Positions 4,725 through 40,853 of a DNA stretch of 44,512 nt are shown here, one piece after another. The notes beneath the pieces are model-generated. The model had not been told where the DNA came from and made no database searches. It was given only the letters and a program-made list of their open reading frames with translations. Positions within the stretch are counted from its first letter, which is position 1. Every line of letters starts with the position of its first letter. Source of the DNA: an archaeon (GTDB lineage Archaea; Nanobdellota; Nanobdellia; SCGC-AAA011-G17; VGLX01); contig JAZDEN010000031.1 of NCBI GenBank assembly GCA_043808805.1, forward strand, positions 1 to 44,512, read 5' to 3'. The position numbers and the translations under genes were made by a program.

Positions 4725-5351
4725 CTTCCTTATAACAACAACGTTATGAATCAGAGCACCGCGCAAACTCCACTTGGAATCAACCAACCTGAAATTATTC
4801 CTCTCAACAACACTCGTAACCCATTTCTTTGACTTAACCAGGGAAGGCTCCTCAGGAAACATCCTGAAAACACCAAGAAACCTTATCATGAGAGCAACAG
4901 GACCATACTTCGGAGGCCAGAAAAGAACAGCCTTACTGTCCTTCTTCAGAACCCGGTTGAACTCCTTAAGGATAATATCAAGCTCACCTGGCTGGAAATG
5001 CTCCATCAAACCAACATTCCAAATCCCATCAAGAGAATTGTCCTTGAAAGGAAGGTTAAGGACATCAGCATTGACGCGATAATCAACAACAACGGGCTGA
5101 TTCTGGAAGATAATGTCAGAAATGTCCATGGCAACCAACTTACGATTATGCTTCGGAATCCTGATGCTCGTCTGAGAAGTACCTGAACCAGAATCAAGGA
5201 AAACACCCTCACGAGGAAAATGCCTGTTCAGCGAATGCGCAACATCATTAGCAATAACATTAGTACGGAAAAAAACAAAAACCCTATTCAAGAAAGACTT
5301 GTTCAGCGTGTTCCAGTGCGCATTCCAATTACTGCCATTATTTTTTATCAT
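4719..5351 (-). CDS. Class I SAM-dependent methyltransferase
   Basis: LDSGSGT motif I, 'ADVLNLPFKDNSLD', 'EFNRVLKK'. Start overlaps the end of the upstream radical SAM gene. Confidence 0.85.
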   Translation of the reverse strand: MIKNNGSNWNAHWNTLNKSFLNRVFVFFRTNVIANDVAHSLNRHFPREGVFLDSGSGTSQTSIRIPKHNRKLVAMDISDIIFQNQPVVVDYRVNADVLNLPFKDNSLDGIWNVGLMEHFQPGELDIILKEFNRVLKKDSKAVLFWPPKYGPVALMIRFLGVFRMFPEEPSLVKSKKWVTSVVERNNFRLVDSKWSLRGALIHNVVVIRKL

Positions 5352-6768
5352 TCTTCAACAAAAACTTCGTAAAAGCAAAGCCAGACTTGACAATCTTCCT
5401 CCTCAAAACAGGATCCTTCATCTTCTTGGTATAATTCCACACAATCCTCGGACGGAAATAGAACGAACGCCAGAGCCTCTTGTAATGCCTCTCAAGCTCC
5501 TCCCTGGTAAAACCATTCGGAAGGAAATTCTCGGTGTTAAACATGTTAACCTTCCTCCAGTCAGGATCGAAAGAACCATACTTAGGGGCCAGCTCCCAGG
5601 CGCTAGTACCAGGCAAGGGAGTAAAATAAGTCATGTGAAAATCAGTAAGGGGAACACGCTTGATGAAATCAAGAGTCTCAGCAATAGTCTCCTTGGTCTC
5701 ACCGAAATTACCCAACATGAACAAACCCTTAACATTGATGCCAACATCATTAGTCATCCTCACAGCACGCTCATTCTGCTCAACAGTAGTCCTCTTATTC
5801 AATATGTCAAGAATTTTTTGTGAGCCAGACTCGAGACCATAATTAACCTGCCAGCAACCGGCCTTCTTGGCAAGTTTCAAAGTCTCCTCATCAATCATGT
5901 CAACACGACCCATGCAAGACCAAGTAATGTCAATCTTCTCATCGATAATAGTCTTTGATATTTCCTTCATCCTATTCTTGAAAACAAGAAAATTATCATC
6001 CTCAATAAACAAATCCTTGATGCCATAATTATCCATCAGATACCTAATCATCTTAATTACGTAAGGGGCGGAATAAGCACGGCAAAGATTGCCAAAAACA
6101 CTCTTCTCACAGAAAACACACTGGCCAGGACAACCCCTCGATGTTATAAGAAGGGTTGCAGGAGAACGATAAAGGCTGTCAGCAGCAGGCTGATAGTACT
6201 TGACAAGATTAGGAAGCAAGTCCCAGGCAGGCAGAGGAAGCTCATCAAGATCCTTAATGTAAGGACGGCGCTCGGTCATCAAGACCTTCTTTCCCTTCTT
6301 GAAAATCAAACCCTTGACATTATCAACTTTCTTATCCTTATCGAGATGCTCCAACAACTCAACAATCGTATGCTCACCCTCACCATAAACACCAACATCA
6401 AAACAATCAAAACGGTCAAAGGTCTCAAGAGGAGCGGCATTGAGATGAGGACCTCCAAGAATAATCTTCACATCCTTATTCTCCTTCTTAACCTCATTCG
6501 CAATGTCAGCAGCATTAAAAATAGCCATAGTGGTCGAAGTAATACCCAGATAATCAGGACTTTCATCAAGAATACGCTTAACAGCCTCCTGCTTGTTCAA
6601 ACGCAGGGCAATGGAATCAAGAATAGAGGTATCATAACCCTTCTCACGGGTAATCGCAGCAAGTATGGAAATGCCCAACGGCGGAAGCTCACTGCCGCTG
6701 TCACCCAAATCATTATAGAGTTCGCTCAAAGACAACGTCGGATTCAAAAACATAACCTTCTTCTTCAT
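5338..6768 (-). CDS. Cobalamin-binding radical SAM protein (1 of 7)
   Basis: N-terminal PPLG, GGPH and GEGE (B12 domain), SRGCPGQCVFC, DDNF, GLESG, PLPGT. Confidence 0.93.
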   Translation of the reverse strand: MKKKVMFLNPTLSLSELYNDLGDSGSELPPLGISILAAITREKGYDTSILDSIALRLNKQEAVKRILDESPDYLGITSTTMAIFNAADIANEVKKENKDVKIILGGPHLNAAPLETFDRFDCFDVGVYGEGEHTIVELLEHLDKDKKVDNVKGLIFKKGKKVLMTERRPYIKDLDELPLPAWDLLPNLVKYYQPAADSLYRSPATLLITSRGCPGQCVFCEKSVFGNLCRAYSAPYVIKMIRYLMDNYGIKDLFIEDDNFLVFKNRMKEISKTIIDEKIDITWSCMGRVDMIDEETLKLAKKAGCWQVNYGLESGSQKILDILNKRTTVEQNERAVRMTNDVGINVKGLFMLGNFGETKETIAETLDFIKRVPLTDFHMTYFTPLPGTSAWELAPKYGSFDPDWRKVNMFNTENFLPNGFTREELERHYKRLWRSFYFRPRIVWNYTKKMKDPVLRRKIVKSGFAFTKFLLKNDKK

Positions 6769-8516
6769 TTCCTCTCCCTAAGATCCTTCAAATCATAAAC
6801 ATAGTAAATGTCCATACCCTGTATTCGGATTATATCGTTGGGCTCGTACTTGGCCTTAAGCTCTAAGCCTTCCTCACCGAACAGATTCTGGTAAGGGCTC
6901 AGGAATAAATACCTTATGGTCTCATTGTTAGGATGATAATACTGGATTCTCTCTGACAGGCTGGGGTCACGGCCGACCTGCTGCTTGAACTGGGTGTCAA
7001 ACTGGAAATTAGTCATGTGCTGGGAGCGCTTTATGTAAAAATGGATAACCTCAGAAGGACCATAAAAAGTCTCACCAGGACCAAGCCTATCCTTCAAATA
7101 ATTGTAAACAACCTTGGAAGAAAAACTGCTTATATCAGAAGAAACAGCAGAGGTGCACTTAGACTTATCAGAAAGGCAGTGGGCACGGTTAACAGAAATG
7201 AAATAAGGAGAGCTTGAAAGCGCAATCGTGAAGGAAAAAACCACATAGACAATCATGAAAACAAAGAAGAAAGTCCTCGGAGGGATCTTGATTAACTTAG
7301 GGATGGAAATCCAGCGGTCAGAAAGCGACATCGCCATTAGGAAGATGAAAAATAAGAGGAAAGGAATGGCAAGCCTGTTAATCTCAAGAATCCTGAGGAA
7401 CAAAGAAACAACAATGCCAATAAGAGTGAAGTAAAGCAGGAAGTTGTCAAGCCTAGATTTATTTTTCCTGAATATGAGAGCGATAAGAAGAACAAAAGCA
7501 AATATGAAAAGGATAGTATCAATAATGTTAATGGTGAGGAAGAAGTTGTAGAAATAGGTGTAAAGACTTTTTATGCTGAAAGAGATGGCTGACATCTCAC
7601 TGTTGAACTGCTGATACATCATGTAGGTATCATAAACATTCTTAGGATTGAACCTGAAAGGAAGAAGAAAGAAGAAAAGGAAACCGATTACAGAGTAAAG
7701 GATTATCCTCCTGAACTGATTCAGCCTAGGCTCAGCACCTGAAAACTTCTCAGCCAACTTAAGATCAAGGGTGTTGAACAAGGATTCCAGGTAATGGGCA
7801 ACCTCACTCAAATACTTACTCAAGAATATGCCAATCCCGAACAGGACAAAAACAGCAGCAGTCTCCTTCGCAGCTTGGGCCAAACCGAAAGAGGAGAAGC
7901 TGAGAACAAAATACCACAACTCCCTCTTCGAAGCCTTCTCAGAGGTATAACCCTTCCACAAGAAAAGCAATGATAATGCAAGGAAAACCCAGAAAACAAT
8001 ATCAGTCCTAATCCAACGGCTGTAAAGCAATATTGGTGGATAGAAAGCAAAAAAAGCAGTAACAAAAGCAGCGCTATACTTATCAAGCATGACAAAAGCC
8101 AAGACAGCAACAAGGAATAAGAAGATTATCCCAAAGAAATACATTGGCATATGACAGAAACGCTCACCATTCGTCAAAGGCTCACCGATAAGCAAAGGAC
8201 GGTCAGGATAATACAAGGGCTTCGTATTAACAACCCTGGAAAAATCCTCACCAGAAAGCATGCAGCCAGCACCAATAAAATAATAACCAAGAGGAAAGTT
8301 GCCAACACTCAAGCCCGGATAATAAGGGGAATCATAAAAAAACATCAAACCAGCGGGAACGAAAGCAGAATCATCACTCCACAATCCCTCCTCATTATAA
8401 TGAGAGAACCTAAGGTAAACACCAAGAAGGAGAATCGCAAAAACAAGTATCAACAAGAGCTTATCCTTCCTCAACTCAGAAAAAATGACCTTCTTCTCAA
8501 CAACCCCTTCTTCCAT
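6765..8516 (-). CDS. ArnT/PMT-like GT-C membrane glycosyltransferase
   Basis: YLRF...LWSDD acidic motif after TM1, 'YSRWIRTD', 'AKET', about 12 hydrophobic segments, soluble C-terminus. Confidence 0.75.
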   Translation of the reverse strand: MEEGVVEKKVIFSELRKDKLLLILVFAILLLGVYLRFSHYNEEGLWSDDSAFVPAGLMFFYDSPYYPGLSVGNFPLGYYFIGAGCMLSGEDFSRVVNTKPLYYPDRPLLIGEPLTNGERFCHMPMYFFGIIFLFLVAVLAFVMLDKYSAAFVTAFFAFYPPILLYSRWIRTDIVFWVFLALSLLFLWKGYTSEKASKRELWYFVLSFSSFGLAQAAKETAAVFVLFGIGIFLSKYLSEVAHYLESLFNTLDLKLAEKFSGAEPRLNQFRRIILYSVIGFLFFFLLPFRFNPKNVYDTYMMYQQFNSEMSAISFSIKSLYTYFYNFFLTINIIDTILFIFAFVLLIALIFRKNKSRLDNFLLYFTLIGIVVSLFLRILEINRLAIPFLLFFIFLMAMSLSDRWISIPKLIKIPPRTFFFVFMIVYVVFSFTIALSSSPYFISVNRAHCLSDKSKCTSAVSSDISSFSSKVVYNYLKDRLGPGETFYGPSEVIHFYIKRSQHMTNFQFDTQFKQQVGRDPSLSERIQYYHPNNETIRYLFLSPYQNLFGEEGLELKAKYEPNDIIRIQGMDIYYVYDLKDLRERK

Positions 8517-8549: not shown

Positions 8550-9518
8550 TTATGGTTTATAGCCTTTTATTGTCTTAATAAGCTCATCACGGGTTGTGGT
8601 AGCAGAACCAAGCTTCCTAACAACAATCCCGGCAGCATAGTTAGAAATCTGAGCCGCATCCTCAAGAGGGGCGCCAGAAGCCAGAGACAGAGCAAGAGCA
8701 GCAGCAACAGTATCACCAGCACCTGTAACATCATAAACACCAGTGGTTATGGCATTAAAATTATGCTCAAGACCGTGCTTCGTAAGAAGCTTCATACCTT
8801 GCTCACCCCTAGTCAGGAGAACATTGCAACCCAGCTCCTCCTTAAGCTTGTAACACAGATGGGAGAGGTCATTATGCTCAGGAACCATGGACTTGGCCTC
8901 AGCAACATTCGGAGTGATCAGTTCACAACCCCTGTATATCCTCTTATTCTGAGGCCTGGGATCTACGATAACAGGAATATTTCTGGAGTATGCAATATCA
9001 AAAAGAGCCTTCATCACATTCTCAGTAACAGCCCCCTTGGCATAATCAGATACTACAACAACGTCACACTTCAGAGCAGCCCTCTCAAGCCTGGAAATAA
9101 CAAGCTGCTCATAAACAGGATGCAAAAGACTAGAATCCTCCTCATCAAACCTCACAATCTGCTGCTTATGCGCGATAAGCCTGACCTTGCTCGTAGTGGG
9201 CTTATCCCTGCAGGTAACAAGATTGTCGGTAATAATCCCCTTCTTATCCAACTCCGAAAGAAGAAGCTTGGCATTATCATCACAGCCGACAACACCAACA
9301 AGATAAACACTACCACCAAGACTCTTAACGTTGGCAGCTGTGTTAGAAGCACCGCCAGGAGTGTAAAGCTTACGCTCGACGTTAACAACGAGAACAGGAG
9401 CCTCAGGAGAAATCCTTGTTGAATTACCCATGAGATAAGTATCTAGCATCACATCTCCCAAAACAAGAACCTTCTTACCACCAAAATTTTTTACAATGTC
9501 CACCAATTTTTGCTGCAT
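8550..9518 (-). CDS. rfaE1: D-glycero-beta-D-manno-heptose-7-phosphate kinase (RfaE/HldE domain I, stand-alone HldA-type)
   Basis: VLGDVMLD, RISPEAPVLV, GGASN, SDYAKG, TPNVAEA, TRGEQGM, DVTGAGDTV, AAGIVVRKLG. No adenylyltransferase domain. Confidence 0.92.
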   Translation of the reverse strand: MQQKLVDIVKNFGGKKVLVLGDVMLDTYLMGNSTRISPEAPVLVVNVERKLYTPGGASNTAANVKSLGGSVYLVGVVGCDDNAKLLLSELDKKGIITDNLVTCRDKPTTSKVRLIAHKQQIVRFDEEDSSLLHPVYEQLVISRLERAALKCDVVVVSDYAKGAVTENVMKALFDIAYSRNIPVIVDPRPQNKRIYRGCELITPNVAEAKSMVPEHNDLSHLCYKLKEELGCNVLLTRGEQGMKLLTKHGLEHNFNAITTGVYDVTGAGDTVAAALALSLASGAPLEDAAQISNYAAGIVVRKLGSATTTRDELIKTIKGYKP

Positions 9519-9568: not shown

Positions 9569-10477
9569 CTAATTATCAAGAGGCCTTGTCGAGGCAACCC
9601 TCTTCCACTTATCACCATAATGCTGGTCCAAAAACTTAGTCTCGTAAGTGAACCTGCCCCAGACGTACAGACGGGCAGGGAAAAGCATCAGAGTCCAGAA
9701 GAACTCCCTGTAAGATTTAGGATAGAGGAAAGCCCACCTCAAACCCTTCAAAGCCTCATTGCCGAAAGACTTAACCCTCAACTCCTTCTCCCTTGACATG
9801 TACCTGTCAAGCATCTCATGAGCCTTGCTGCTCCTAACCTTCTGATTAACCCAATCCTTAAGGTTTTTTGGGTAGGTAACATAAGCAAGAGCCTTCTCAG
9901 CATAAGCAACCTTGTAACCTTTCTTCCAGAACATGTAAGGGATGATAGCATCCTCACCCACATCAGTCGGCATATCACCTACTATATTATTTCGCATCGC
10001 AAACAAATAACCAGTACACTCAAGGAACTGCCCGTTCTTGTACCTCTCCCTCCTGATGTTATGGGCACCTGCATCAGTAAGAAGATGAGACCAATAACCA
10101 AGCATGTTACCCTTAGGGTTAGCAGAAACAGGCCTGCCAGAAACACAACCCACCTTAGGATCCTTAAACTTGTTATAAAGTTCCTTAACAGAATTATCAC
10201 TAACAAAAATATCACCATCAGTAAAAATAAGGATATCACCCTTAGACTTCTTCGCAAGGATGTTCATCATAACATTCTTACCCCACTCCCTCGGCTGATG
10301 CAGGAAATGAATGTTCTTATGCCTCTTCATGTAATCCCTGACAACCTTCTCAGTAGGCTCATCAGGACAGGTAACCCAGATCTCAAACTTTTCAGGAATC
10401 TTCTGGACTAAGAAACGACGGATGCACTCCTTACTAGCCATAGGCTCCTCCCAGGCAGTAATTATTATTGATATCAT
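9569..10477 (-). CDS. Glycosyltransferase family 2 (processive-type motif set)
   Basis: ISIIITAWEE, FTDGD (DxD), VGCVSG, GED, and NQKVRS as a QxxRW variant. Confidence 0.88.
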   Translation of the reverse strand: MISIIITAWEEPMASKECIRRFLVQKIPEKFEIWVTCPDEPTEKVVRDYMKRHKNIHFLHQPREWGKNVMMNILAKKSKGDILIFTDGDIFVSDNSVKELYNKFKDPKVGCVSGRPVSANPKGNMLGYWSHLLTDAGAHNIRRERYKNGQFLECTGYLFAMRNNIVGDMPTDVGEDAIIPYMFWKKGYKVAYAEKALAYVTYPKNLKDWVNQKVRSSKAHEMLDRYMSREKELRVKSFGNEALKGLRWAFLYPKSYREFFWTLMLFPARLYVWGRFTYETKFLDQHYGDKWKRVASTRPLDN

Positions 10478-10510: not shown

Positions 10511-11623
10511 TTACCTATCAATAAGAGACCTGACAGCATCAAAAACCTCTTCAGGAGTAATCGTCTCCATGCAGGTGGGCTTCCTGTCACACTCAAACTG
10601 GTCATAACAGTTGATGCAATCAACCTTACCAACCAACTTCACACCCTTGCCGTAAACATCAATCTCCTGAGAGGGAGTAGGACCGAACAAAGCAACAACA
10701 GGCCTCTTCAACGCAATCGCAAGATGCATACCAGCAGTATCACCGGTAATGACAACATCACAAACATTAATCAGGGATGCAAACTCAACAATAGTCGTCC
10801 TATTGGTCAAATCAATCACGTTGTCCGAAACGCTGCTGAGCCAGCTGTTATAACCTATCTCAGTCTTTCCGCCGAACAACAAAACCTTGGCATCAAACTC
10901 CTGAACCATCATGTTAATCAGCTTGATGTAATACTCCACAACCCACTTCTTATGAGGATAGACAGGACCGCAGCCAGTGTTCAAGCCTATAACAACATCA
11001 GTGGAACCAACATCATTACTCTTAAGAAAATCATACGCAAACTCGACAGCAGACTTGGGAATGTTAACAACATACTCCTCACCATCATACCTCAAGCCGG
11101 CGATGTCAAAAATCATCTCTTGGTAGGTCTTCACATTCTCAGTCTTCTTGCCCCAATTATCGATGCACATGTCAAAATGGTATTTTGCTTCCTCATTCAG
11201 GGGAAAAACAACACCATGCTTGTCAAGGCCATAACCCCTCTTCTCCTTGGCATCAAGCCTCATCGCCAATGCAGCGGAGTGAGACGCCTTATCCAGGTTA
11301 ATCAGGATATCAAACTCCTGAACCATCAAAGCCTGGACAGTGTTATGATTATACTTCAGAAGACGGTCTATGTAAGGATTATCCTTAAGCAGCTCATAAG
11401 ACTCCTCACCAACAACCCAAGTAAGTAAACTCTCAGGATATTTCTTCTTCAAGCCGACAGCAAGAGGAGTAGCACGCAAAACATCACCGATGGCATCCAG
11501 CTTGATAAGGATTATATTCTCCTTGACAGGGGAATGATGAGAACACTCTTCACAGTTATAAGACCTATCATCCCAATAATGCTTGCAGGGCCTATCACCC
11601 TTGAAATAACGACATACTACCAT
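10511..11623 (-). CDS. Glycosyltransferase family 9 (heptosyltransferase-like) with Cys-rich N- and C-termini
   Basis: IKLDAIGDVL, KKW, ITGDTAGMHLAIAL, VALFGPT, C-terminal CINC-x5-C-x5-CM. ATG at 11623 follows GTGGGGGT. Confidence 0.9.
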   Translation of the reverse strand: MVVCRYFKGDRPCKHYWDDRSYNCEECSHHSPVKENIILIKLDAIGDVLRATPLAVGLKKKYPESLLTWVVGEESYELLKDNPYIDRLLKYNHNTVQALMVQEFDILINLDKASHSAALAMRLDAKEKRGYGLDKHGVVFPLNEEAKYHFDMCIDNWGKKTENVKTYQEMIFDIAGLRYDGEEYVVNIPKSAVEFAYDFLKSNDVGSTDVVIGLNTGCGPVYPHKKWVVEYYIKLINMMVQEFDAKVLLFGGKTEIGYNSWLSSVSDNVIDLTNRTTIVEFASLINVCDVVITGDTAGMHLAIALKRPVVALFGPTPSQEIDVYGKGVKLVGKVDCINCYDQFECDRKPTCMETITPEEVFDAVRSLIDR

Positions 11624-11729
11624 AATAACCCCCACTCAAACATTATCCACTCTTTTTATAAAGATTTTGCTATGCAAAGGTTTAAAAATAAGCCCATAAT
11701 CGGTAAGGAAAAGGAGTTCTGATAAAAAA

Positions 11730-31465: not shown

Positions 31466-32429
31466 GTTTACTTTTAAAATAAGTCGCTATGTCTCTTATG
31501 ATATCATCCAAGCTGTGATCCACCTTGTAAGAAATAGTAGATCTTATCAATGAAATGTCAGGAACCCTTCTTGACATATCTTCAAAACCACGACCATAAG
31601 CTTTATCATAAGGAACGTAAACAATCTCCGAACTACTATTTGTCAACTCCTTCACTCGCAAAGCAAGATCCTTAATTGAAATTTCATTATCAGATCCTAT
31701 ATTGTAAATGTTACCTTCAGCCTCCGGGCAGTTAGATATGTCCACTAAACCCCTAACAACATCAAGCACATGCACAAAACACCTCACCTGGGAACCGTCT
31801 CCATAAACAGTGATAGCCCTGTTGTTTAAAGCTTGTTCAACAAAACGTGGAACTACCATGCCATAACGACCTGTTTGCCTAGGTCCAACAGTATTAAATA
31901 ACCTCATAATGGTAACAGGTAATTTCTTATCATCTCTGTAAGCAAGAGCAAAAAATTCATCAACAGCCTTACCGCAAGCATAACTCCACCTCATAATCTG
32001 AGCAGCCCCTAAAACGCGATCATCATGCTCACGAAAAGGTACCTTATCACTCTTACCATAAACTTCAGAAGTAGAAGCAAAAATAACTTTCTTATTGTAT
32101 TTAGCAGCTAACTCAAAAACATTCTCAGTGCCTATAATGTTTGTTTTCAAAGAATTCAGAGGATTTTTAAGAATGTACTCCACCCCCACAGCAGCTGCAA
32201 GATGATAAATAATATCTACTTTCTTAACCAAACTTTCAAGAAGCTCTTTATCAAGAACACTCCCTTCATTAAAATAAAAATTCTTATTATTCATTAGATG
32301 ATTAATATTGTCAATATTTCCAGTAGAAAGATTGTCTACAATACAAACCTTATGACCTCTATCTATAAGCACATCATTGAGATGACTGCCAATAAACCCT
32401 GCACCACCCGTAACCAAAACATTTTTCAT
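31458..32429 (-). CDS. NAD-dependent epimerase/dehydratase (UDP-uronate decarboxylase-like SDR)
   Basis: VTGGAGFIGSHL, HLAAAVG, STSEVYG, RWSYACGK, RLFNTVGPRQ, RRVPDI. Confidence 0.9.
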   Translation of the reverse strand: MKNVLVTGGAGFIGSHLNDVLIDRGHKVCIVDNLSTGNIDNINHLMNNKNFYFNEGSVLDKELLESLVKKVDIIYHLAAAVGVEYILKNPLNSLKTNIIGTENVFELAAKYNKKVIFASTSEVYGKSDKVPFREHDDRVLGAAQIMRWSYACGKAVDEFFALAYRDDKKLPVTIMRLFNTVGPRQTGRYGMVVPRFVEQALNNRAITVYGDGSQVRCFVHVLDVVRGLVDISNCPEAEGNIYNIGSDNEISIKDLALRVKELTNSSSEIVYVPYDKAYGRGFEDMSRRVPDISLIRSTISYKVDHSLDDIIRDIATYFKSKPN

Positions 32430-32431
32430 TT

Positions 32432-33703
32432 TTAAAGACTCTTATAGATAAAACCATTTTTAAAAGCTTCGGATTCATCAAAAAGATATTTAATATCAAC
32501 AAGAACAGGATTTTTGCCCATAATCTTAAGTAGTTTATCAAGTGTTAAAACTTTAAAACAGTCATGAGCAACGGCTAAAACAACGCAGTCGATGCCAACC
32601 AAACTTTCTATCTGAACAGATTCGATTCCAAACCTCTTAATTTCCTCATTAGAAAGCCAAGGATCATGAACATAAACTTTAATCCCAAACTCCTCTAAAC
32701 TATTAAACACCTCTAAAACCCTAGTATTCCTTGTATCATTAATATTTTCTTTAAACGTAAACCCTAAAATTAGTACCTTAGAATCTTTCAGAACCTTCCC
32801 TGCCTCATTAAGCCCCTTAATTACAAGTTCAGCCACATGTTTTGGCATAAAATCGTTAACATCCCGACCGGCAAGAATAACTTTAGGATGATAACCCACC
32901 TCCTCAGACTTATATAAAAGGTAATATGGGTCTACAGATATACAATGGCCACCAACAAGACCAGGAGTATATTTATGAAAGTTCCATTTGGTAGAGGCGG
33001 CCTCAAGAACATCTTTTGTCCGTATACCCATTCTATTAAAAATCAAAGCAAATTCGTTAATTAGAGCTATGTTGATATCACGCTGAGTATTCTCAATTAC
33101 CTTAGCAGCCTCAGCAACTTTTATATTCTTAGCCTTGAAAACACCCACTTTTATAATCTTTGAATAAATCCTGCAAAGCTCCTCTGCGGTTTCATCATCT
33201 ATACCGCTAACCACTTTAACAAGATTACTGACAGTGCGAATCTTATCTCCAGGACTAATTCTCTCTGGAGAATAACCAACTTTAAAATCCCCACCACACT
33301 TTAATCCTGAATTACTCTCTAAGATAGGTATACATACCTCTTCAGTAACCCCTGGATAAACTGTTGACTCATAAACAACTATACTCCCCTTACTTAAATT
33401 TCTCCCACAAATTTCTGAAGCATTTTCCAAAGGGTATAGATCTGGCTTTTTCGACTTTGTAAGAGGAGTGGGAACAGCAATAAATATGATGTTACATGAT
33501 TTTATATCACTCTCGTTATGCGTAAAAAAAATATTTGACTTCTTTAACTCGTCAGGCGTAAAATGCATTGTAGGATCCAATCCCTCTTTCAATTTCTTAA
33601 TCTTGTCTTTATCAATATCAAACACCACAGTATCATAATGTCGTGAAAATTCTACTGCCAATGGAATACCTACATAACCTGCTCCGATAATACATATCCT
33701 CAT
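32432..33703 (-). CDS. Nucleotide-sugar dehydrogenase (UDP-HexNAc 6-dehydrogenase, TviB/WbpO-like)
   Basis: GAGYVG, AVPTP, YESTVYPGVTEE, YSPERI, AEAAKVIENTQRDINIA, PGLVGGHCI, FKEN. ATG 33703. Confidence 0.93.
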   Translation of the reverse strand: MRICIIGAGYVGIPLAVEFSRHYDTVVFDIDKDKIKKLKEGLDPTMHFTPDELKKSNIFFTHNESDIKSCNIIFIAVPTPLTKSKKPDLYPLENASEICGRNLSKGSIVVYESTVYPGVTEEVCIPILESNSGLKCGGDFKVGYSPERISPGDKIRTVSNLVKVVSGIDDETAEELCRIYSKIIKVGVFKAKNIKVAEAAKVIENTQRDINIALINEFALIFNRMGIRTKDVLEAASTKWNFHKYTPGLVGGHCISVDPYYLLYKSEEVGYHPKVILAGRDVNDFMPKHVAELVIKGLNEAGKVLKDSKVLILGFTFKENINDTRNTRVLEVFNSLEEFGIKVYVHDPWLSNEEIKRFGIESVQIESLVGIDCVVLAVAHDCFKVLTLDKLLKIMGKNPVLVDIKYLFDESEAFKNGFIYKSL

Positions 33704-33835
33704 TTTTACTGCTAATTTAATAAAAAAGGGTATATAAAGATTATTAGAATGCAACAATTAGGTTTTAGATAAATCTCGGTTAGATTAGGAAACTATATAG
33801 AAAGTTATTTAAAATAAAGTTATAACCCTTAACTT

Positions 33836-35266
33836 ATGAAAATTTTGCTTATTAACCCCCCTTGGCCTGGTAAAGGCTTTGGAACAAGAAGCCAGAACAG
33901 AATAATAAAACAGAGGGCAGACAAGTTCCTACAGTTCCCACTCTACTTGGGCTATACATCGGCTATGCTGAAAAAGCTAGGCCATGATGTTTTCTACATA
34001 GACTCTGTAGTTCAAGAACTAAATGAAGAGCAGACAAACCAGAAAATCAAAGAGATAATGCCAGACGTAATATTGATGGAAACAACAACACCTTCAATAG
34101 AGTATGACTTCAAATACATAAACAAGATGAAGGAGCTGACAAACGCCTTCATAATAGCGACCGGAACCCATGTAAGCTACTTCCCAAAAGAATCGATGGA
34201 ACAGTGCAAGGGGCTGGACTTGATAATAAAAGGCGAGTATGACACAAGGATAGACCAGATAATAATAAACTTAAAAGACCTGGAAAAAGTAAAAGGGTTA
34301 ACATTCAGGAAAAAAGGGAAGGTAGTAGACACGGGAACCGCTGAACTTCCAGCAGACCTAGACTTCATGCCTTTCCCAGACAGGGATACTATACAACTAG
34401 ACTGGTATGGGGAAGCTTGGTACAACAAAAGACCATTCATGAACATCATGACATCAAGGGGGTGCCCGTATCAATGCACATTCTGTGTCTATCCCAACAT
34501 AATAGAAGGGCACAAATGGAGGAAGAGAAGCGTAGACAACGTGATAGCAGAGCTAAAATACGTGGTGGAGAAATATGGGGTAAAAGAGATAAACATCGAT
34601 GACCCAACATTCAACATAAGCAAGGAAAGGGTTATAGAATTCTGCAAGAAGCTGAGAGCCAACAAACTGAACTTGCTGTGGACCTGCAATGCAAGAGTGG
34701 ACAACATAGATGAGGAAATGCTGAGAGAAATGAAAAAATCAGGATGCAAGATGATAAGGTATGGGGTTGAGTCAGGCTCAATGGAAGTTTTGAACAAAAT
34801 GAAAAAAGGGATAACCATAGAGCAGATAAAGAGGGCTTTCAAACTCACAAAAAAACAGGGGATACTAGCACTAGGGGGGTTCATGTTCGGATTCCCATAT
34901 GACTCAAAAAAATCGATAGAAGAAACACTAAAACTTGCCAAAGAACTAAAACCAGACCTAATACAGGCATCAATACCTATGGCATACCCTGGAACACCAC
35001 TCTACGAAGAGGCAAAGAAAGAGGGCAAACTCATAATAAACTCCTGGAGCGATTTTGATATGACAAAAGGGCCTATAGTAAAAACTATAGATATGAACAA
35101 AGAAGAGTTGACAGAAATACTCAATAGAGTCTATAAAGAATTCTACTTCAGGCCAGGATTCATACTGCAAACATTATCTACTATAAGAAGGCCATCGGAT
35201 ATATCAAGGCTAACCAGGACATTCCTCAGTCTGGTAAGAACAGTCAGGTTTTACAAAAAAGAATAA
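33836..35266 (+). CDS. Cobalamin-binding radical SAM protein (5 of 7), HpnJ-like N-terminus
   Basis: NPPW..RSQNR, TGTH, GEYD, SRGCPYQCTFC, DDPTF, GVESG, YPGTPL. Confidence 0.92.
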   Translation: MKILLINPPWPGKGFGTRSQNRIIKQRADKFLQFPLYLGYTSAMLKKLGHDVFYIDSVVQELNEEQTNQKIKEIMPDVILMETTTPSIEYDFKYINKMKELTNAFIIATGTHVSYFPKESMEQCKGLDLIIKGEYDTRIDQIIINLKDLEKVKGLTFRKKGKVVDTGTAELPADLDFMPFPDRDTIQLDWYGEAWYNKRPFMNIMTSRGCPYQCTFCVYPNIIEGHKWRKRSVDNVIAELKYVVEKYGVKEINIDDPTFNISKERVIEFCKKLRANKLNLLWTCNARVDNIDEEMLREMKKSGCKMIRYGVESGSMEVLNKMKKGITIEQIKRAFKLTKKQGILALGGFMFGFPYDSKKSIEETLKLAKELKPDLIQASIPMAYPGTPLYEEAKKEGKLIINSWSDFDMTKGPIVKTIDMNKEELTEILNRVYKEFYFRPGFILQTLSTIRRPSDISRLTRTFLSLVRTVRFYKKE

Positions 35267-35268: not shown

Positions 35269-35808
35269 ATGTTAAAGAAAAAATTTACGAGCATGACAAT
35301 GAAACAAGCAATAAAACTAAGACCTGAAGAAAAAAAAATTATCGACATAGGCCCTGGAAGATATCCCAAGAAAGATGCCAACATATTTGTAGATATAGAT
35401 TACAAATTAATAAAACATCTTAAAAACCCGGTAGTTTGGGACCTCAACAAGATACCATACCCATTCGAAGAAGACTCTATAGACAAGATATACCTAGCAA
35501 GTGTATTAGAACACCTCCAAGCTCCAACAGCAGATGTACTGAAAGAGCTGTGGAGAATACTAAAATTCGGAGGGGTAGTAGTTCTAACACTACCAAACAC
35601 CTACTTCATAGTCAAAAGAATACAATTTCTACTGGGAATAATGCACAATAATTTCAGACCACAGCATAAGAAATACGTAAATTACTCTTTCATAAGGCAT
35701 ACAGTAAAAGAAGCAGGATTCTGGATTGAATCAGAACCTCACAAGTACCTACCCTTCAAGAACCTCCTCCTTCCAAGAATAGAGATGGTAATAAAGAAGG
35801 AAGTCTAA
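35269..35808 (+). CDS. Class I SAM-dependent methyltransferase domain protein
   Basis: IDIGPG, 'DLNKIPYPFEEDSID', VLEHL, ELWRILKFGG, PN motif. Confidence 0.82.
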   Translation: MLKKKFTSMTMKQAIKLRPEEKKIIDIGPGRYPKKDANIFVDIDYKLIKHLKNPVVWDLNKIPYPFEEDSIDKIYLASVLEHLQAPTADVLKELWRILKFGGVVVLTLPNTYFIVKRIQFLLGIMHNNFRPQHKKYVNYSFIRHTVKEAGFWIESEPHKYLPFKNLLLPRIEMVIKKEV

Positions 35809-35827: not shown

Positions 35828-36874
35828 ATGAAATTCTTAATAATAAGCTCTCTGGCAAGGAATACAGGCGGTTACCTTAGGGGCGAATACATGGCAAAAT
35901 CACTAAGGGATTTAAAACAAGATGTGACCTATGTAAAATCGTTCAGAAGGCTTCCATTCGAACTCTACTATATATTCTCATTACCTTACTATCTGTTCAA
36001 AGCCCTAACAACAAAAGCGGATGTTGCAATATGCTTGAAACCGTTCCCAAACGCAACAATCCCTATACTCCTAAAAAAGCTCTCAAAAACAAAAACTATC
36101 GTAGATATAGATGACCTTGATTATGGATTCAGCAAGCTAGGAAAAATTATCAAAGCAACACAAGTACCCTCAATAAAATATTTTGACTTGGTAACAGTAC
36201 ACAACGAAAACCTATACAACCTAGTAACCAGTGAATACAAAATCAGAAAAGATAAGGTTTACAAGATGGAACAAGGAGTTCCGTTAAATATTTTTGATCC
36301 TAAGAAATATGACCTAAAAAGAACGAGGGAAGAGCTTGGACTAACAAACAAAAAAGTTATAGGGTACCAAGGGCATCTCTCAAGATCATCAGATCTCGAA
36401 CCCATACTAAAAATCTTCAAGGAGGCCTCAAAAAACATAGACAATATGATATTGTTAGTAATAGGAGGGGGAGTAAAATACAAAAAATACGTCCAAATGG
36501 CCAAAGAAATGGGAATAGAAAACATAAGATTCACAAACTTTGTAAAGCCAGAAAGAGCAGCAGAGCTTGTAGCAATATCAGATGTGTGCATAGTATACTA
36601 TCCAAGGATAGAAGCAAACAAATACCGGGCATCGATGAAATTGAGAGAATACCTAGCAATGGAAAAACCAGTCATATGCAACTCTTTTGCGGACCTAGAG
36701 AGGTTTAAGGAGTACACATACCAATTCGATAAAGATGAAGAAGCAACAGAAGCATTCAAAAAAGCACTAAACCCAGATAAAAGGGAGACAAAAGGATATA
36801 AATTCGTAACAGAAAACATGTCATGGGAAATGATAGCTAAAGGCCTGCTACAGAGAATATCATCTATTTCTTAA
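35828..36874 (+). CDS. Glycosyltransferase family 4
   Basis: VDIDD, QGV...FDP, IGYQG, KLREYLAMEKPVI. Confidence 0.87.
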   Translation: MKFLIISSLARNTGGYLRGEYMAKSLRDLKQDVTYVKSFRRLPFELYYIFSLPYYLFKALTTKADVAICLKPFPNATIPILLKKLSKTKTIVDIDDLDYGFSKLGKIIKATQVPSIKYFDLVTVHNENLYNLVTSEYKIRKDKVYKMEQGVPLNIFDPKKYDLKRTREELGLTNKKVIGYQGHLSRSSDLEPILKIFKEASKNIDNMILLVIGGGVKYKKYVQMAKEMGIENIRFTNFVKPERAAELVAISDVCIVYYPRIEANKYRASMKLREYLAMEKPVICNSFADLERFKEYTYQFDKDEEATEAFKKALNPDKRETKGYKFVTENMSWEMIAKGLLQRISSIS

Positions 36875-38273
36875 AAGTATATCTCAAAAAAGAAACTCCG
36901 GATTTCATAATACTCTTTCTCTGCAATGGATCCCTTAATTTTTTTAGGTAATAAAGCATTATTTTTGGCCTCAGATAGAACGAACGGTATAACTTCTTAT
37001 AGTAAACATCAATCTGCTCATTGGTAAGTTCCTTTGGAACAAAATTATTAGATTGAAAAACATTAACCTTTTCCCAATCTGGATCAAAAGAACCATACTT
37101 GGGAGCTAATTCCCAAGCCTTAGTACCAGGAAAAGGTGAAAACCTACATAGATTAATATCATCTAAAGGAACCTTCATAATGAACCTCTTGGTTTCTTCT
37201 AAGGTTTCTAAGGTTTCACCAAAACTACCAAACATAAAGGAACACTTAACTGATATACCTGCTTCATGAGTTAACTTTATCGCCTTCTCATTCTGCTCAA
37301 CAGTTGTACCCTTATGCAATATATCCAAAATTTTTTGTGAGCCTGACTCAGCACCATAAATAATTTGCCAGCATCCAGCTTTCTTCATAAGTTTTAAGGT
37401 TTCTTCATCAATCATATCAACCCTACCCGAACATGACCAGGGCATATCAATCTTTTCTTTAATCATTATTTCACATATCTCTTTCAGCCTCCTTCTAAAA
37501 ACAAGGAAATTATCCTCATCAAAAATCAATGAATTAATACCAAATCCGTCTCTAAGATACTTAATCAGCTTAACCACATAACCAGCACTATTCGCCCTAC
37601 AGACATTGCCAAAAATGCTTTTCTCACAGAAAATACACTGACCAGGACAACCACGAGATGTAACCACAATAGTCGTTGGTGCCTTATACATTTTATCTGC
37701 AATTGGCTGGTAATGTTTGGCTAAATCCGGAAGAAGATCATAAGCAGGAAATGGTAAAGTATCAAGATTGGATATATAAGGTCTCCGCTCTGTAATAAAT
37801 ACTTTTTTACCTATTTTTATCACCAAACCCTTAACGTTGTTTATATTTTTCTTCTTATCAATTTTATCAAGAAGTTCAAGTAAAGTCAACTCACCTTCGC
37901 CATAAACACCAACGTCAAAACTTGAAAATCTTTGCATAGTTTCAATAGGAGAAGTTGTTAAATGCGCTCCCCCAAGTATTATTTTAATATGCGGGTTTTC
38001 CTTTTTAACAGAATCTGCAATACTAACAGCATTAAAAATATTCATTGTGGTAGAAGTAACTCCCAAATAAGCGGGATCCTCATCAAGAATTCTTTTAACG
38101 GTCTCCTCGTTATCCAATCGTAAGGCAAACTGATCTATAATCTTTGGTTCATACTTATCCCTTACAACAGAAGAAAGTTGACAAATCCCTACAGGAGGAA
38201 GTACAGTCGTGATATCCCCTAACTTTGTGTATTTACCATCCAAAGAAGGATTTAAAAATACAATTTTTTTCAT
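36864..38273 (-). CDS. Cobalamin-binding radical SAM protein (6 of 7), close homolog of 5338..6768
   Basis: PPVG, GGAH, GEGE, SRGCPGQCIFC, GAESG, PFPGT. Long identical blocks shared with 5338..6768. Confidence 0.93.
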   Translation of the reverse strand: MKKIVFLNPSLDGKYTKLGDITTVLPPVGICQLSSVVRDKYEPKIIDQFALRLDNEETVKRILDEDPAYLGVTSTTMNIFNAVSIADSVKKENPHIKIILGGAHLTTSPIETMQRFSSFDVGVYGEGELTLLELLDKIDKKKNINNVKGLVIKIGKKVFITERRPYISNLDTLPFPAYDLLPDLAKHYQPIADKMYKAPTTIVVTSRGCPGQCIFCEKSIFGNVCRANSAGYVVKLIKYLRDGFGINSLIFDEDNFLVFRRRLKEICEIMIKEKIDMPWSCSGRVDMIDEETLKLMKKAGCWQIIYGAESGSQKILDILHKGTTVEQNEKAIKLTHEAGISVKCSFMFGSFGETLETLEETKRFIMKVPLDDINLCRFSPFPGTKAWELAPKYGSFDPDWEKVNVFQSNNFVPKELTNEQIDVYYKKLYRSFYLRPKIMLYYLKKLRDPLQRKSIMKSGVSFLRYTFKK

Positions 38274-38413: not shown

Positions 38414-39727
38414 ATGAAAATATTACTTATCAACCCCCCAATAAAATTCATTGAAGGACAGGGTGACCGCCCACCATTAGGTTTAGCTTATTTAGCAGCA
38501 AATCTACTGAAGAATGGAAAAGAACATGTTAAGATACTTGATTTATCTACAAAACCTAATTTTTCTCTACCTGAATATTTATTGCAAGAGAAGCCTGACA
38601 TTGTTGCAATATCAAGTATGACCCCTACATTTTTCGAATGTGCAGCTATCTCAAAGATTTGCAAAGAGACCCTAAAGGGAATTATCACGGTAGCCGGAGG
38701 ACCCCATCCCAGCTCACTTCCAGAACAAACTTTGAAAGAATCGGATTTTGATATTGTTATATACGGAGAAGGTGAGGTAACATTTGACAAACTAATTGAT
38801 ACATTAGAAAACAAAGGAAATCTAAAAGACGTTCAAGGCTTATACTATAACGAAGAGGGTAAGATCCTTTCAACAGAACCTAGACAATTACAGGAAAACA
38901 TAGATATGATACCCTTCCCCGCCAGGCATCTTTTAAATATGGAAGAATATACAATGAAGATACAAGGGCTACCTGCAACAACGATAATCACATCAAGAGG
39001 TTGCCCTTTTAGTTGTGTATACTGCAACAAATCAGTCTTTGGAAACAAATTTAGAGCCAGATCACCAAGAAATATTGTTGACGAAATAAAAGAGATAACA
39101 AAAACATACGGAATAAAAGCATTTCTTTTTGTTGATGATACATTCACATATGATTATAAAAGGACAGAAGGTATATGCGATTTAATTATAAAAGAAAAAT
39201 TAGGTATTATATGGCGTTGCTGGACAAGGTCAGATAAAGTTGATAAAAACCTTATAAAAAAAATGTACGAAGCCGGGTGCACGGAGATGAGCTTTGGTAT
39301 AGAATCCGGCAATCAACAAGTGTTAAACAAAATAAGAAAGGGTACATTAGTAGAACAAAATGAAAAAGCAATAAAATGGGCAAGAGAAATGGGAATTTAT
39401 GTTAAAGCATTTTTCATGATAGGGCTTCCTGGAGAATCTATGAATACAGTTAAAGATAATTTAGAATTTATAAAAAAAGCAGATCCCAATAACGTTGATT
39501 TCTACATAATGACCCCTTTCCCAAGCACCAAAGTTTGGGATGATCCAGAGAGCTTGGGAATAAAAATAGTTTCTAAGGATTGGAGAAGTTACTTCCATGC
39601 AGGTAAAGAAGGAGCTACACACAGTGTCGTGGCCACAGAACACATGAGTAGAAAGGAGATTGATTTAGCATATGAGTGGATAGTCAAAGAATACGAAAAG
39701 ATAAAAAATTCCGAAAACAGCAAATAA
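38414..39727 (+). CDS. Cobalamin-binding radical SAM protein (7 of 7)
   Basis: PPLGLAYLAA, GGPHPS, GEGE, SRGCPFSCVYC, DDTF, GIESG, GLPGE. GAGGT SD upstream. Confidence 0.94.
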   Translation: MKILLINPPIKFIEGQGDRPPLGLAYLAANLLKNGKEHVKILDLSTKPNFSLPEYLLQEKPDIVAISSMTPTFFECAAISKICKETLKGIITVAGGPHPSSLPEQTLKESDFDIVIYGEGEVTFDKLIDTLENKGNLKDVQGLYYNEEGKILSTEPRQLQENIDMIPFPARHLLNMEEYTMKIQGLPATTIITSRGCPFSCVYCNKSVFGNKFRARSPRNIVDEIKEITKTYGIKAFLFVDDTFTYDYKRTEGICDLIIKEKLGIIWRCWTRSDKVDKNLIKKMYEAGCTEMSFGIESGNQQVLNKIRKGTLVEQNEKAIKWAREMGIYVKAFFMIGLPGESMNTVKDNLEFIKKADPNNVDFYIMTPFPSTKVWDDPESLGIKIVSKDWRSYFHAGKEGATHSVVATEHMSRKEIDLAYEWIVKEYEKIKNSENSK

Positions 39728-39806
39728 CGCTTTAATAAGAGTTTATTTATATTTTCTGTATAACAAACATTTAAATATCATTACTTTTTTCAATAATCTG
39801 TTAAAA

Positions 39807-40853
39807 ATGCTAGAGAAAATATATTACTCGATTCGGAAAAACCATGTTAAGAAGCCAATTTATTTAATATATTTTGTAACAAACATATGCAATTCAAAAT
39901 GTAATCATTGTTTTTATTCAAAACAATTAAACAGACCAGAAAATAAAGACTTAACTTTGAATGAAATAAACAACTTTTCAAAACAACTTGGCAAGTTAAT
40001 ATGGCTCTCATTCTCAGGAGGCGAACCTTTCATGAGGAAAGATATAACAGAAGTTTACAATATTTTTCTAAAAAATAATAAGTTCAGCAACTTTACAATA
40101 CCCACTAATGGTATACTCACAGATACAATATACAAAAAAACTAGAGAGATGTTAATGATTAAAAAAATAAAATCTTTCAGCCTCAACCTTTCATTAGACG
40201 GTCCTAAAGAAATACACAACCAAATAAGAGGGGTAAGTTGCTACGATAACGTTTTTAAAACCTATGACAAAGTGAAGAGTTTAAAAAAAGAGTTTCCTTT
40301 CTTCTCTATAAAAGTTAGCACAACATTATCAAACAAGAATATAAACTACCTAAAAGAGTTACATAAAGAAGTTCATAACCGAATGCCAGAAATAAATTTT
40401 CATAATTTTGAGATAATGAGGGGGGATGCAAAAAATCATGATTATAACCCTCCTACAATAGAGGAGCTTTATAAGAATAAAGAAATAATATTTAAAATAT
40501 GGGATGATTACCAATTTTACGATAAAAAAATAAGCTCAAGGATAGCTCTAAATGCAAAAAAGGAAATATTTAACACATACATCCAAATTCTAAAGACAAA
40601 AAAACAACCCTTCATGTGCTATGCTGGTAGGATCCATGCAGTGCTTGATAATAATGGAGATATTTATTTCTGCGAATTACTAAATAAGATAGGGAACATA
40701 CGGCAAAAAAGTTTTTCAGAAATATGGCACTCTGAAGAAGCCAACAAACTAAGGGATTCTATAAAAAATAGAGAATGTTACTGTACCCATTCATGCTTTC
40801 AAAATACAAATTTTATTTTTAAAAAAAGTAATTGGCTTAAATTAGTAAGGTAG
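39807..40853 (+). CDS. Radical SAM protein with SPASM/twitch domain
   Basis: CNSKCNHC, SGGEPF, TNG, SLDG, CYAG...GDIYFCE...IGNI...CYCTHSC. Confidence 0.92.
   Translation: MLEKIYYSIRKNHVKKPIYLIYFVTNICNSKCNHCFYSKQLNRPENKDLTLNEINNFSKQLGKLIWLSFSGGEPFMRKDITEVYNIFLKNNKFSNFTIPTNGILTDTIYKKTREMLMIKKIKSFSLNLSLDGPKEIHNQIRGVSCYDNVFKTYDKVKSLKKEFPFFSIKVSTTLSNKNINYLKELHKEVHNRMPEINFHNFEIMRGDAKNHDYNPPTIEELYKNKEIIFKIWDDYQFYDKKISSRIALNAKKEIFNTYIQILKTKKQPFMCYAGRIHAVLDNNGDIYFCELLNKIGNIRQKSFSEIWHSEEANKLRDSIKNRECYCTHSCFQNTNFIFKKSNWLKLVR

Follow-up and report, generated by a model that had tools for sequence, protein, structure and literature searches.

Nine radical SAM genes, seven with B12-binding domains, in a probable surface-glycan island of a small-genome DPANN archaeon

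The stretch of DNA analyzed here (the window, 44,512 bases) is the entire contig C31 of an archaeal assembly of 790,161 bases in 64 contigs, and it carries nine genes for radical S-adenosylmethionine (SAM) enzymes among a large set of glycan genes. We combined an open reading frame (ORF) listing with a Pfam scan of 40 window ORFs and named the seven radical SAM proteins with a B12-binding domain R1 to R7 and the two with a SPASM/twitch domain S1 and S2. An earlier sequence-only reading had listed nine such genes; all lie where it had placed them, and each of the nine proteins contains one CxxxCxxC motif. In the following list, TIGR03471 is the HpnJ profile (cut-off 577.6 bits), TIGR02026 the BchE profile (cut-off 481.35) and TIGR04072 a model for lipid biosynthesis B12-binding/radical SAM proteins (cut-off 360).

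5338..6768, minus strand: R1, B12-domain radical SAM protein (PF02310 and PF04055; TIGR03471 205.8 bits against 577.6)
16348..17877, minus strand: R2, B12-domain radical SAM protein (PF02310 and PF04055; TIGR03471 72.5, TIGR04072 91.5; 57-86% identity in other genomes)
23173..24678, plus strand: R3, B12-domain radical SAM protein (PF02310 and PF04055; TIGR03471 131.6)
29272..30735, plus strand: R4, B12-domain radical SAM protein (PF02310 and PF04055; TIGR03471 160.7, TIGR04072 148.9, the top score of that model; accessory, not in congener G001)
33836..35266, plus strand: R5, B12-domain radical SAM protein (TIGR03471 309.3 against 577.6, profile positions 1-457 of 472)
36864..38273, minus strand: R6, B12-domain radical SAM protein (PF02310 and PF04055; TIGR03471 210.7; paralogue of R1)
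38414..39727, plus strand: R7, B12-domain radical SAM protein (TIGR03471 205.9; TIGR02026 232.5 against 481.35, the top score of that model; no congener counterpart)
27291..28319, minus strand: S1, BtrN-like twitch radical SAM protein (PF04055 and PF13186)
39807..40853, plus strand: S2, SPASM/twitch-like radical SAM protein (PF04055 and PF13186; type unassigned)

In R1 to R7, PF02310 scores between 42.5 and 75.8 bits (gathering score 32.1) and is followed by PF04055 in all seven cases. Together with the CxxxCxxC motif, this architecture bears out their earlier assignment to class-B-type radical SAM enzymes, outside every curated family tested. The best NCBIfam profile is HpnJ for R1, R5 and R6, BchE for R3, R4 and R7, and TIGR04072 for R2; none of the seven reaches the cut-off of any of these three models. 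R1 and R6 are 61% identical, and the remaining pairs 24-35%. For R4, 1,892 of 7,998 candidates scored are homologues at E ≤ 1e-10, none with a name beyond "radical SAM", from archaeal metagenome-assembled genomes (MAGs; archaeon, Altiarchaeota, Nanoarchaeota) and some bacteria. The Protein Atlas clusters of R5 and R2 are likewise described only as generic "B12-binding radical SAM". An AlphaFold model of R4 built from 77 homologues (pLDDT 96.1) contains a five-stranded Rossmann domain, and its best folds are OxsB, TsrM, MgmA/QCMT and AprD4 with nearly equal E-values and 15-22% sequence identity in the alignments. The best solved-sequence match of R5 is AprD4, over the core only.

The SPASM domain PF13186 scores 63.4 bits in S1 and 42.4 in S2, against a threshold of 21.5. 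The best solved relative of S1 is BtrN (4m7t, E 5.7e-16), which aligns over two stretches, the core and the C-terminal twitch. Cys245, 263, 308 and 311 of S1 align at equal spacing with four BtrN cysteines, which we take to be the ligands of its auxiliary cluster. The prediction of a twitch enzyme like BtrN therefore holds for S1, in which core, twitch and all four cysteines are present; S2 gave no BtrN match and only weak matches elsewhere. The auxiliary cysteines are arranged as CX17C...CX2C in S1 and CX17C...CxCx3C in S2, and the full seven-cysteine SPASM motif is incomplete in both, so this partial set suggests one auxiliary cluster in each protein. A scan for hydrophobic segments found none in the nine radical SAM proteins. 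Since these enzymes also need SAM and a reductant, they are predicted to be cytoplasmic. Outside the island, contig C52 of the same genome (L034:1208-3488) carries two more adjacent SPASM-type radical SAM genes (328 and 429 amino acids), which adjoin two proteins without a Pfam match.

The radical SAM genes are surrounded by five GT2, five GT4/GT1 and two GT9 glycosyltransferase (GT) genes and four genes for GT-C-type membrane proteins, the latter with 9-13 hydrophobic segments each. Sugar-nucleotide genes, several GTs and a MOP flippase occur side by side, as in Wzx-dependent glycan loci, and the locus had rightly been read as one devoted to glycans. The remaining ORFs of the window are the following.

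64..1596, minus strand: GT-C fold glycosyltransferase, PMT_2/ArnT-like (PF13231 71.5 bits; 11 hydrophobic segments)
1617..2678, minus strand: GDP-mannose 4,6-dehydratase (TIGR01472 474 bits, above the equivalog cut-off of 415)
2675..3928, minus strand: DegT-family sugar aminotransferase (PF01041 283.6 bits)
4002..4724, plus strand: GT2a (PF00535; best profiles polyprenyl-phosphate sugar synthases AglJ, ArnC and PpgS, all below cut-off)
4719..5351, minus strand: MTa, class I SAM methyltransferase (PF08241; overlaps R1 by 14 nt)
6765..8516, minus strand: GT-C-like membrane protein (weak PMT_2 and Agl23-like matches; 9 hydrophobic segments)
8550..9518, minus strand: heptose-7-phosphate kinase-like PfkB kinase (TIGR02198 347.1 bits, cut-off 345)
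9569..10477, minus strand: GT2b (PF13641, PF00535)
10511..11635, minus strand: GT9a, heptosyltransferase family (PF01075 91.2 bits)
11730-12083: ORF of 117 amino acids, no family match
12132..13460, plus strand: protein of 442 amino acids (weak DUF6395 and MurL-like matches; kept within the genus)
13461..13853, minus strand: S-adenosylmethionine decarboxylase-family protein (PF02675 82.5 bits)
14304..15458, minus strand: GT4a (Pfam; 53-60% identity across families of the order)
15489-15845: ORF of 118 amino acids, no family match
15863-16351: ORF of 162 amino acids, no family match
17874..19013, minus strand: GT9b (PF01075 111.1 bits; overlaps R2 by 4 nt)
19067..20005, minus strand: GT2c (best profile dolichyl-phosphate hexose transferase, below cut-off)
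19825..21072, plus strand: GT4b (PF00534 162.9 bits)
21009..23069, minus strand: PTPS_related membrane protein (PF10131 51.3 bits; 13 hydrophobic segments)
24675..25781, plus strand: GT4c (Pfam; overlaps R3 by 4 nt)
25774..27294, minus strand: MOP/Wzx-type flippase (PF13440, PF01943; 14 hydrophobic segments)
28418..29275, plus strand: GT2d (PF00535 111.5 bits)
30737..31465, plus strand: PIG-L/LmbE-family de-N-acetylase (PF02585 56.5 bits)
31458..32429, minus strand: NDP-sugar epimerase/dehydratase/decarboxylase of the short-chain dehydrogenase/reductase (SDR) family (Pfam, NCBIfam)
32432..33757, minus strand: nucleotide-sugar 6-dehydrogenase (TIGR03026 388.7 bits, above the cut-off of 189.8)
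35269..35808, plus strand: MTb, class I SAM methyltransferase (Pfam)
35828..36874, plus strand: GT1/GT4-type glycosyltransferase (PF00534 41.8 bits)
40858..42000, plus strand: GT4d (Pfam)
41997..42908, minus strand: GT2e, AglJ/dolichyl-phosphate hexose transferase-like (TIGR04182 144.1 and NF041391 128.7 bits, both below cut-off; hydrophobic segments at the C-terminus)
42859..44475, minus strand: GT-C fold glycosyltransferase, PMT_2-like (12 hydrophobic segments; frame open to the contig end at 44511)

Every short overlap or gap previously listed between radical SAM and glycan genes is present. R1 overlaps the GT-C-like gene by 4 nt and the methyltransferase gene by 14 nt; overlaps of 4 nt also join GT9b to R2, R3 to GT4c, S1 to the flippase gene and GT2d to R4 (from its start at 29272). 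R4 is followed by the PIG-L gene after 1 nt, R5 by a methyltransferase gene after 2 nt and then by the GT1-type gene, R7 by S2 after 79 nt, and S2 by GT4d after 4 nt. The GT-C call for the gene at 6765-8516 fared less well: it does encode a membrane protein with nine segments, but its PMT_2 match (E 7e-4) lies below the cut-off. Some boundaries depend on the choice of start codon. The longest R4 ORF opens at 29071, and homologues of 487-491 amino acids that align from residue 1 favor the ATG at 29272; the true start of GT2c is probably further downstream, as its Pfam domain begins at residue 77. The overlaps at 19825-20005 and 29071-29275 arise because upstream start codons lengthen the ORFs.

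The island dominates the glycan and B12-domain gene content of the genome. All seven PF02310 matches of the assembly and nine of its 23 PF04055 matches lie on C31, which makes up 5.6% of the sequence, and no PF02310 protein is encoded elsewhere. With hidden Markov models (HMMs) built for this analysis, which were also used to categorize the ORFs of related genomes, 16 of the 28 GT-category ORFs of the genome fall on C31 (39 of 892 ORFs), compared with 12 among the 853 ORFs elsewhere. AglB/STT3 is encoded on contig C7. There (L035:1-14728) it lies at the contig end beside a second sugar cluster with two DegT aminotransferases, a GNAT/FemAB-like protein, a GT2, a methyltransferase, two DUF362 proteins, an amine oxidase-like flavoprotein and a UbiA prenyltransferase.

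SPASM-type and B12-type radical SAM enzymes are common maturases of peptides that are made ribosomally and modified after translation (RiPPs), and the island could in principle mature such a peptide, later glycosylated by the GTs. The RiPP profiles ApyD and rSAM_ocin_1 do match, with E-values of 1e-16 to 1e-49, but their scores are far below cut-off. The Pfam matches of the 40 ORFs include neither a precursor-like gene nor a family of peptidases or exporters, none of the three small ORFs (of 117, 118 and 162 amino acids) has a family match, and the islands of relatives are dominated by glycan genes. A RiPP system is thus very improbable.

The lipid substrates of related enzymes suggest another explanation, in which the substrates of the radical SAM enzymes are the cores of membrane lipids (scavenged from a host, for example), remodeled by methylation, cyclization or tail coupling, with the glycan genes as mere neighbors. 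It is modeled on Gmm, GrsA/B, Tes/Gms and bacterial Mss. The best profile of R2 is a "lipid biosynthesis" model, and in the available text of PMC9204698 the nearest profiles (HpnJ, BchE and the ladderane-associated enzyme) all have lipophilic substrates. The accessible part of PMC11214058 describes the characterized archaeal B12-domain radical SAM enzymes GrsA/B and Gmm as acting on glycerol dialkyl glycerol tetraether (GDGT) lipids, and a Black Sea study, as excerpted, reports "Mss hits" in Woesearchaeia MAGs and suggests the modification of acquired lipids (PMC11868695). However, the TIGR04072 scores stay far below cut-off (at best 148.9 against 360, for R4), S1 and S2 have only weak matches, confined to the core, to 7tol, a solved homologue of tetraether synthase (E 5e-7 and 6e-5), and the neighboring genes encode GTs, a flippase and sugar-nucleotide enzymes rather than lipid synthesis. 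DPANN archaea contribute 6 of the 990 Gmm sequences in the accessible part of PMC11214058. We regard this explanation as improbable, less so than the RiPP alternative.

The host is a small-genome (~0.8-Mb) Woesearchaeota-like DPANN archaeon. The archaeal origin already proposed is confirmed by ribosomal protein L21e, with bacterial L20 not found in the assembly, and by a Candidatus Woesearchaeota MAG as the nearest named relative of one host protein; small-subunit ribosomal RNA was not found in the assembly, which is 76% complete and 1.7% contaminated and contains about 890 ORFs. Among sequencing runs, no RNA run is listed as containing this DNA, and the four DNA runs listed contain just 0.05-0.15 of the words sampled. 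The glycan locus had been confined to 5338-40853. Its nature stands, but its extent has to be revised, as the island covers the window entirely (1-44512). Comparable islands lie inside 0.5-0.77-Mb contigs of the relatives G012 and G039. In tetranucleotide composition C31 correlates with the other large contigs at r = 0.98, and a misbinned contig was rejected on this ground and on synteny with congeners. The part from 30 to 42 kb (30001-42000) deviates, with r = 0.83 and a GC content of 0.344, below the 0.389-0.470 of 30 pieces of 12 kb from other parts of the genome. It holds the PIG-L, SDR and dehydrogenase genes, R5, MTb, the GT1-type gene, R6, R7, S2 and GT4d. Because this segment is partly common to the congener G001, it is no very recent arrival.

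Islands of this kind recur in related genomes, as had been anticipated. PF02310 matches are present in 34 of the 41 genomes of the order, at least five of them in 21 genomes, and in 190 of 301 phylum genomes sampled (at least 80% complete; the tally includes G268, flagged as unpublished). They cluster: among the matches listed, G012 has six within 112.5-139.8 kb of one contig and G039 six within 55.5-85.3 kb. In all ten relatives' islands analyzed, B12-domain radical SAM genes are mixed with GT2, GT4, GT9, GT-C and flippase genes.

The enzyme set itself varies. G001 contains counterparts of R1, R2, R3, R5, R6, S1 and S2 at 70-86% identity and lacks R4, R7, the dehydrogenase and the SDR gene, with its GT2d and PIG-L genes adjacent to each other; G003 retains only R1, R2 and S1 of the radical SAM set (59-83%). 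R1, R2 and S1 are thus the conserved core of the complement. An S1-type gene is adjacent to the flippase gene in the window, in both congeners examined (G003 and G001) and in G012 of another family. In a quick tree of the island radical SAM proteins (63 of 64, one having been dropped for length), R2 is the only one of the seven whose clade is well supported and extends over six genomes; R4 groups with the Woesearchaeota MAG, R5 with two genomes, R3 and R7 stand alone, and R1/R6 form a recent duplicate. R2 is the most conserved of the seven, with GT9 or GT4a as a direct neighbor in four of the six genomes.

A metagenome scan with the R4 family alignment yielded 80 loci with relatives of 24-36% identity. 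A GT gene lies beside the radical SAM gene in 20 of them and within the locus in 32, any glycan-category gene in 37, a further radical SAM gene in 31, and a class I methyltransferase gene beside the radical SAM gene in 23. GT-type genes make up 62 of the 452 flanking genes (13.7%) against 12 of 853 (1.4%) in the host background, and methyltransferases 39 of 452 against 7 of 853; the taxa behind these loci are unassigned, and the host genome is a rough control. In four metagenome loci (L080, L060, L076 and L048), between four and six B12-domain radical SAM genes stand in a row, together with methyltransferase genes and few or no GT genes; these loci may represent a different system drawn from the same enzyme family. 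In L002, a locus from a search of genome contigs that encodes a distant Tissierellaceae relative (24% identity), the neighbors match none of the glycan categories, and this locus is therefore uninformative on the enzyme family.

Based on gene content and homology, we propose that C31 is probably the main surface-glycan island of this archaeon, for a glycoprotein or glycolipid, and that the radical SAM enzymes serve in it as accessories which tailor sugars, most likely lipid-linked ones. The nine enzymes would act on sugars at the cytoplasmic face of the membrane, and the substrate would most likely be lipid-bound (on polyprenyl phosphate or in a glycolipid), a proposal made because the nearest characterized relatives act on lipid-anchored substrates and because GT2a, GT2c and GT2e, though below cut-off, are closest to polyprenyl-phosphate sugar synthases. 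The modified sugar would then be flipped and transferred by a GT-C enzyme or AglB. The seven class-B enzymes may carry out C-methylation, like MoeK5/GenK, or radical rearrangement of the sugar ring, like HpnJ/OxsB, and S1 may be a BtrN-like dehydrogenase that turns a hydroxyl group of a sugar into a ketone. The clearest candidate for lipid-linked sugar tailoring is the gene order GT2d, R4, PIG-L: the accessible text of PMC13459092 proposes a ring contraction by HpnJ on glucosaminyl-bacteriohopanetetrol, the product of the GT HpnI and the deacetylase HpnK, and a similarity network described in the available text of PMC9204698 groups HpnJ with the sugar methylase MoeK5. The radical SAM complement varies between close species as in variable O-antigen-type loci, and its differences between congeners mark these genes as accessory, exchangeable tailoring genes of a variable island.

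A number of results weigh against this proposal. The first concerns the suggestion that each pair of GT and radical SAM genes is a module that adds and modifies one sugar, which is not supported. In the ten islands, 35 of 57 B12-domain radical SAM genes have a GT gene as direct neighbor; shuffles of the gene order within islands give a mean of 28.5 (sd 3.6), and 53 of 1000 reach 35. The loci were chosen for their radical SAM content, and the shuffle addresses adjacency inside islands only. Conserved pairs, the expected outcome of a genome-neighborhood comparison, were found in one case: R2 with the GT9/GT4 genes is the sole such block retained across families. R4 is missing from G001, and the GT2d, R4, PIG-L triad is kept in neither G001 nor G003. 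As adjacency does not exceed the shuffles, functional coupling rests on island membership and the R2 block. GT-C enzymes use lipid-phosphate-linked sugar donors and act outside the membrane, so that they cannot simply pass a product to a neighboring radical SAM enzyme without a hydrophobic segment. As judged from gene order and content, the radical SAM genes are not fixed partners of particular GTs.

Further adverse points come from the profile scores and the gene inventory. No radical SAM protein (0 of 9) reaches an NCBIfam curated cut-off. At E ≤ 1e-12 no NCBIfam model matches the PIG-L protein, and HpnI is not among the models that match GT2d; the likeness to HpnI, HpnJ and HpnK is therefore an analogy of gene logic and not orthology. 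The best profiles of GT2a, GT2c and GT2e are polyprenyl-phosphate sugar synthases (AglJ, dolichyl-phosphate hexose transferase, ArnC, PpgS), with all scores below the curated cut-offs. Among the 40 window ORFs, no Pfam family of an initiating phosphoglycosyltransferase or polymerase was found at E ≤ 0.001; the contig ends within glycan genes, and these functions may lie past its ends. In the ten relatives' islands, 154 of 407 ORFs were left uncategorized by our HMMs.

The supply of cofactors is the remaining difficulty. FecCD/BtuC-type permease, the one transporter type searched for, and CobS were each found in 0 of the 41 genomes of the order, the host included, of which 25 are at least 90% complete. 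Searches for MetK found the archaeal type in 3 of 41 genomes and the bacterial type in 9 of 41, but neither in the host and no full-length match in the genus; the three congeners (90-95% complete) gave a single match, in G002, to part of the archaeal-type profile (positions 53-140 of 395). SufBD matches occur in 18 of the 41 genomes and in 0 of 7 in the family of the host. These searches cover few gene families and are no proof of absence. At Rfam gathering thresholds the window contains no RNA family, hence no cobalamin or SAM riboswitch. The assembly has 23 radical SAM matches in 790 kb, and SufBD, FecCD and CobS were not found in the host or the three congeners.

The negative searches for cobalamin genes, together with the lack of any further PF02310 protein in the host, would fit enzymes that resemble AprD4 and work without cobalamin, with a 5′-deoxyadenosyl radical used for dehydration, epimerization, oxidation or ring contraction and no methylation. 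In the accessible part of PMC12931638, AprD4 and ArsL are placed in class-B similarity networks yet bind no cobalamin; AprD4 is the best solved match of R5 and one of the best folds of the R4 model. According to the available text of PMC9204698, cobalamin is contacted in OxsB, TsrM and TokK by the motifs G-x-S/T after β3, GG on β4 and GE on α5. In an alignment of the seven sequences they are present in 7/7, 6/7 and 5/7 of R1 to R7: R5 has TG instead of GG, and R3 and R5 carry GQGQ and GEYD at the GE site. Against cobalamin independence stand these largely intact motifs, PF02310 above its gathering score in all seven, the Rossmann domain of the R4 model with the cobalamin-binding OxsB, TsrM and MgmA as best folds, and W87, G88, G89 and H91 of R4, which are invariant or nearly so among 77 homologues; moreover, the search covered two cobalamin gene families only. 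We therefore judge cobalamin independence to be unlikely, though less so than lipid-core remodeling, and cobalamin use by R1 to R7 plausible from these sequence features.

We advance an extension of the sugar-tailoring proposal only tentatively, and consider it doubtful in full: throughout Woesearchaeales and other Nanoarchaeia, cobalamin-dependent radical SAM enzymes dedicated to the tailoring of surface glycans would have radiated and diversified fast, and would make C-methyl-branched or carbocyclic (cyclitol-like) lipid-linked sugars not known in archaeal glycobiology, entirely on SAM and cobalamin supplied by a host and possibly with an unrecognized route of iron-sulfur assembly in the family of this archaeon.

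Three further observations concern the gene inventory. The heptose-7-phosphate kinase-like gene and two heptosyltransferase-family GT9 genes occur here in an archaeon; the assembly, 76% complete, yielded neither GmhA nor domain II of HldE, the adenylyltransferase, and heptose is therefore not claimed as the sugar. The protein of 442 amino acids is encoded back to back with the SAM decarboxylase-family gene, and both are 71-83% identical in two congeners; the pair may provide a second SAM-consuming step, for example aminopropyl chemistry. Of the small ORFs beside R2, the one of 118 amino acids has weak counterparts downstream of R2 in G003 (32%) and G002 (49%), and the one of 162 amino acids, located between R2 and the former but on the other strand, may be spurious.

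For DPANN archaea, which live attached to other cells, the cell surface is where they meet the host; to our knowledge, almost nothing is known of the chemistry of this surface. Antibiotic pathways and the hopanoid and calditol head groups already provide examples of radical SAM enzymes that tailor sugars, and no paper on radical SAM-rich glycan islands in DPANN archaea was found among open-access papers and bioRxiv. What is new here is a dense, lineage-wide and variable set of radical SAM genes inside the primary surface-glycan island of archaea with reduced genomes. One island takes nine of 23 radical SAM genes and more than half of the GT-type genes; most relatives are alike in this, with an enzyme set specific to each species. 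If these enzymes do tailor sugars, they form a large uncharacterized branch of class-B radical SAM glycan chemistry, they predict unusual sugars that mass spectrometry of enrichments could reveal, and the question arises how cells without a recognizable SAM synthetase or cobalamin uptake feed such enzymes. If the cofactors come from the host, the surface chemistry of the symbiont would depend directly on them. The sub-operons GT2d-R4-PIG-L, GT-C-R1-methyltransferase and GT9-R2 are compact enough for direct heterologous tests.

Among known systems, bacterial O-antigen and capsule loci share with the island a Wzx-type flippase, many GTs, sugar-nucleotide genes, content replacement between congeners and a low-GC segment. 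They differ in that the host here is archaeal, Wzy, a chain-length regulator and an initiating transferase were not identified among the window Pfam matches, and the radical SAM load is unusual. In the three-component pathways of the Arn (4-amino-4-deoxy-L-arabinose, L-Ara4N) and Gtr type, a GT2 loads polyprenyl phosphate, the sugar is modified and flipped, and a GT-C enzyme transfers it. The window has similar parts in its small GT2s, PMT_2/ArnT-like GT-C proteins, dehydrogenase, decarboxylase-like SDR, DegT and deacylase genes, but all matches to these models are below the curated cut-offs, and we know of no radical SAM tailoring in Arn or Gtr-type pathways.

GrsA/B, Gmm, Tes/GDGT-MAS, Gms and Mss are likewise B12-domain or SPASM/twitch radical SAM enzymes of archaeal envelopes, with homologues reported in DPANN MAGs in the available parts of that literature. 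In contrast to these lipid-modifying enzymes, the context in the window is glycan, the 7tol matches are weak and the TIGR04072 cut-off is unmet. HpnI-HpnK-HpnJ of bacterial hopanoids and Cds of Sulfolobus calditol synthesis, as described in the excerpted sources, rely on a GT to attach N-acetylglucosamine or a hexose to a lipid and on a radical SAM enzyme to rearrange the sugar ring. In the Hpn pathway, on the same excerpts, a deacetylase frees the amine and HpnJ has a B12 domain, a parallel to the order GT2d, R4, PIG-L; compared with it, the HpnJ scores of the window are 160-309 bits against 577.6, no HpnI or HpnK model matches the neighbors, the host is archaeal without a hopanoid context, and there are seven paralogues instead of one. 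The C-methylases GenK, GenD1, Fms7 and MoeK5, the dehydrogenase BtrN, the diol dehydratase AprD4 and the ring-contracting OxsB belong to the same classes and act on sugar or aminocyclitol substrates. These natural-product enzymes occur singly or in pairs in bacterial antibiotic clusters, whereas here nine radical SAM genes stand together in a primary archaeal glycan island of a kind found order-wide.

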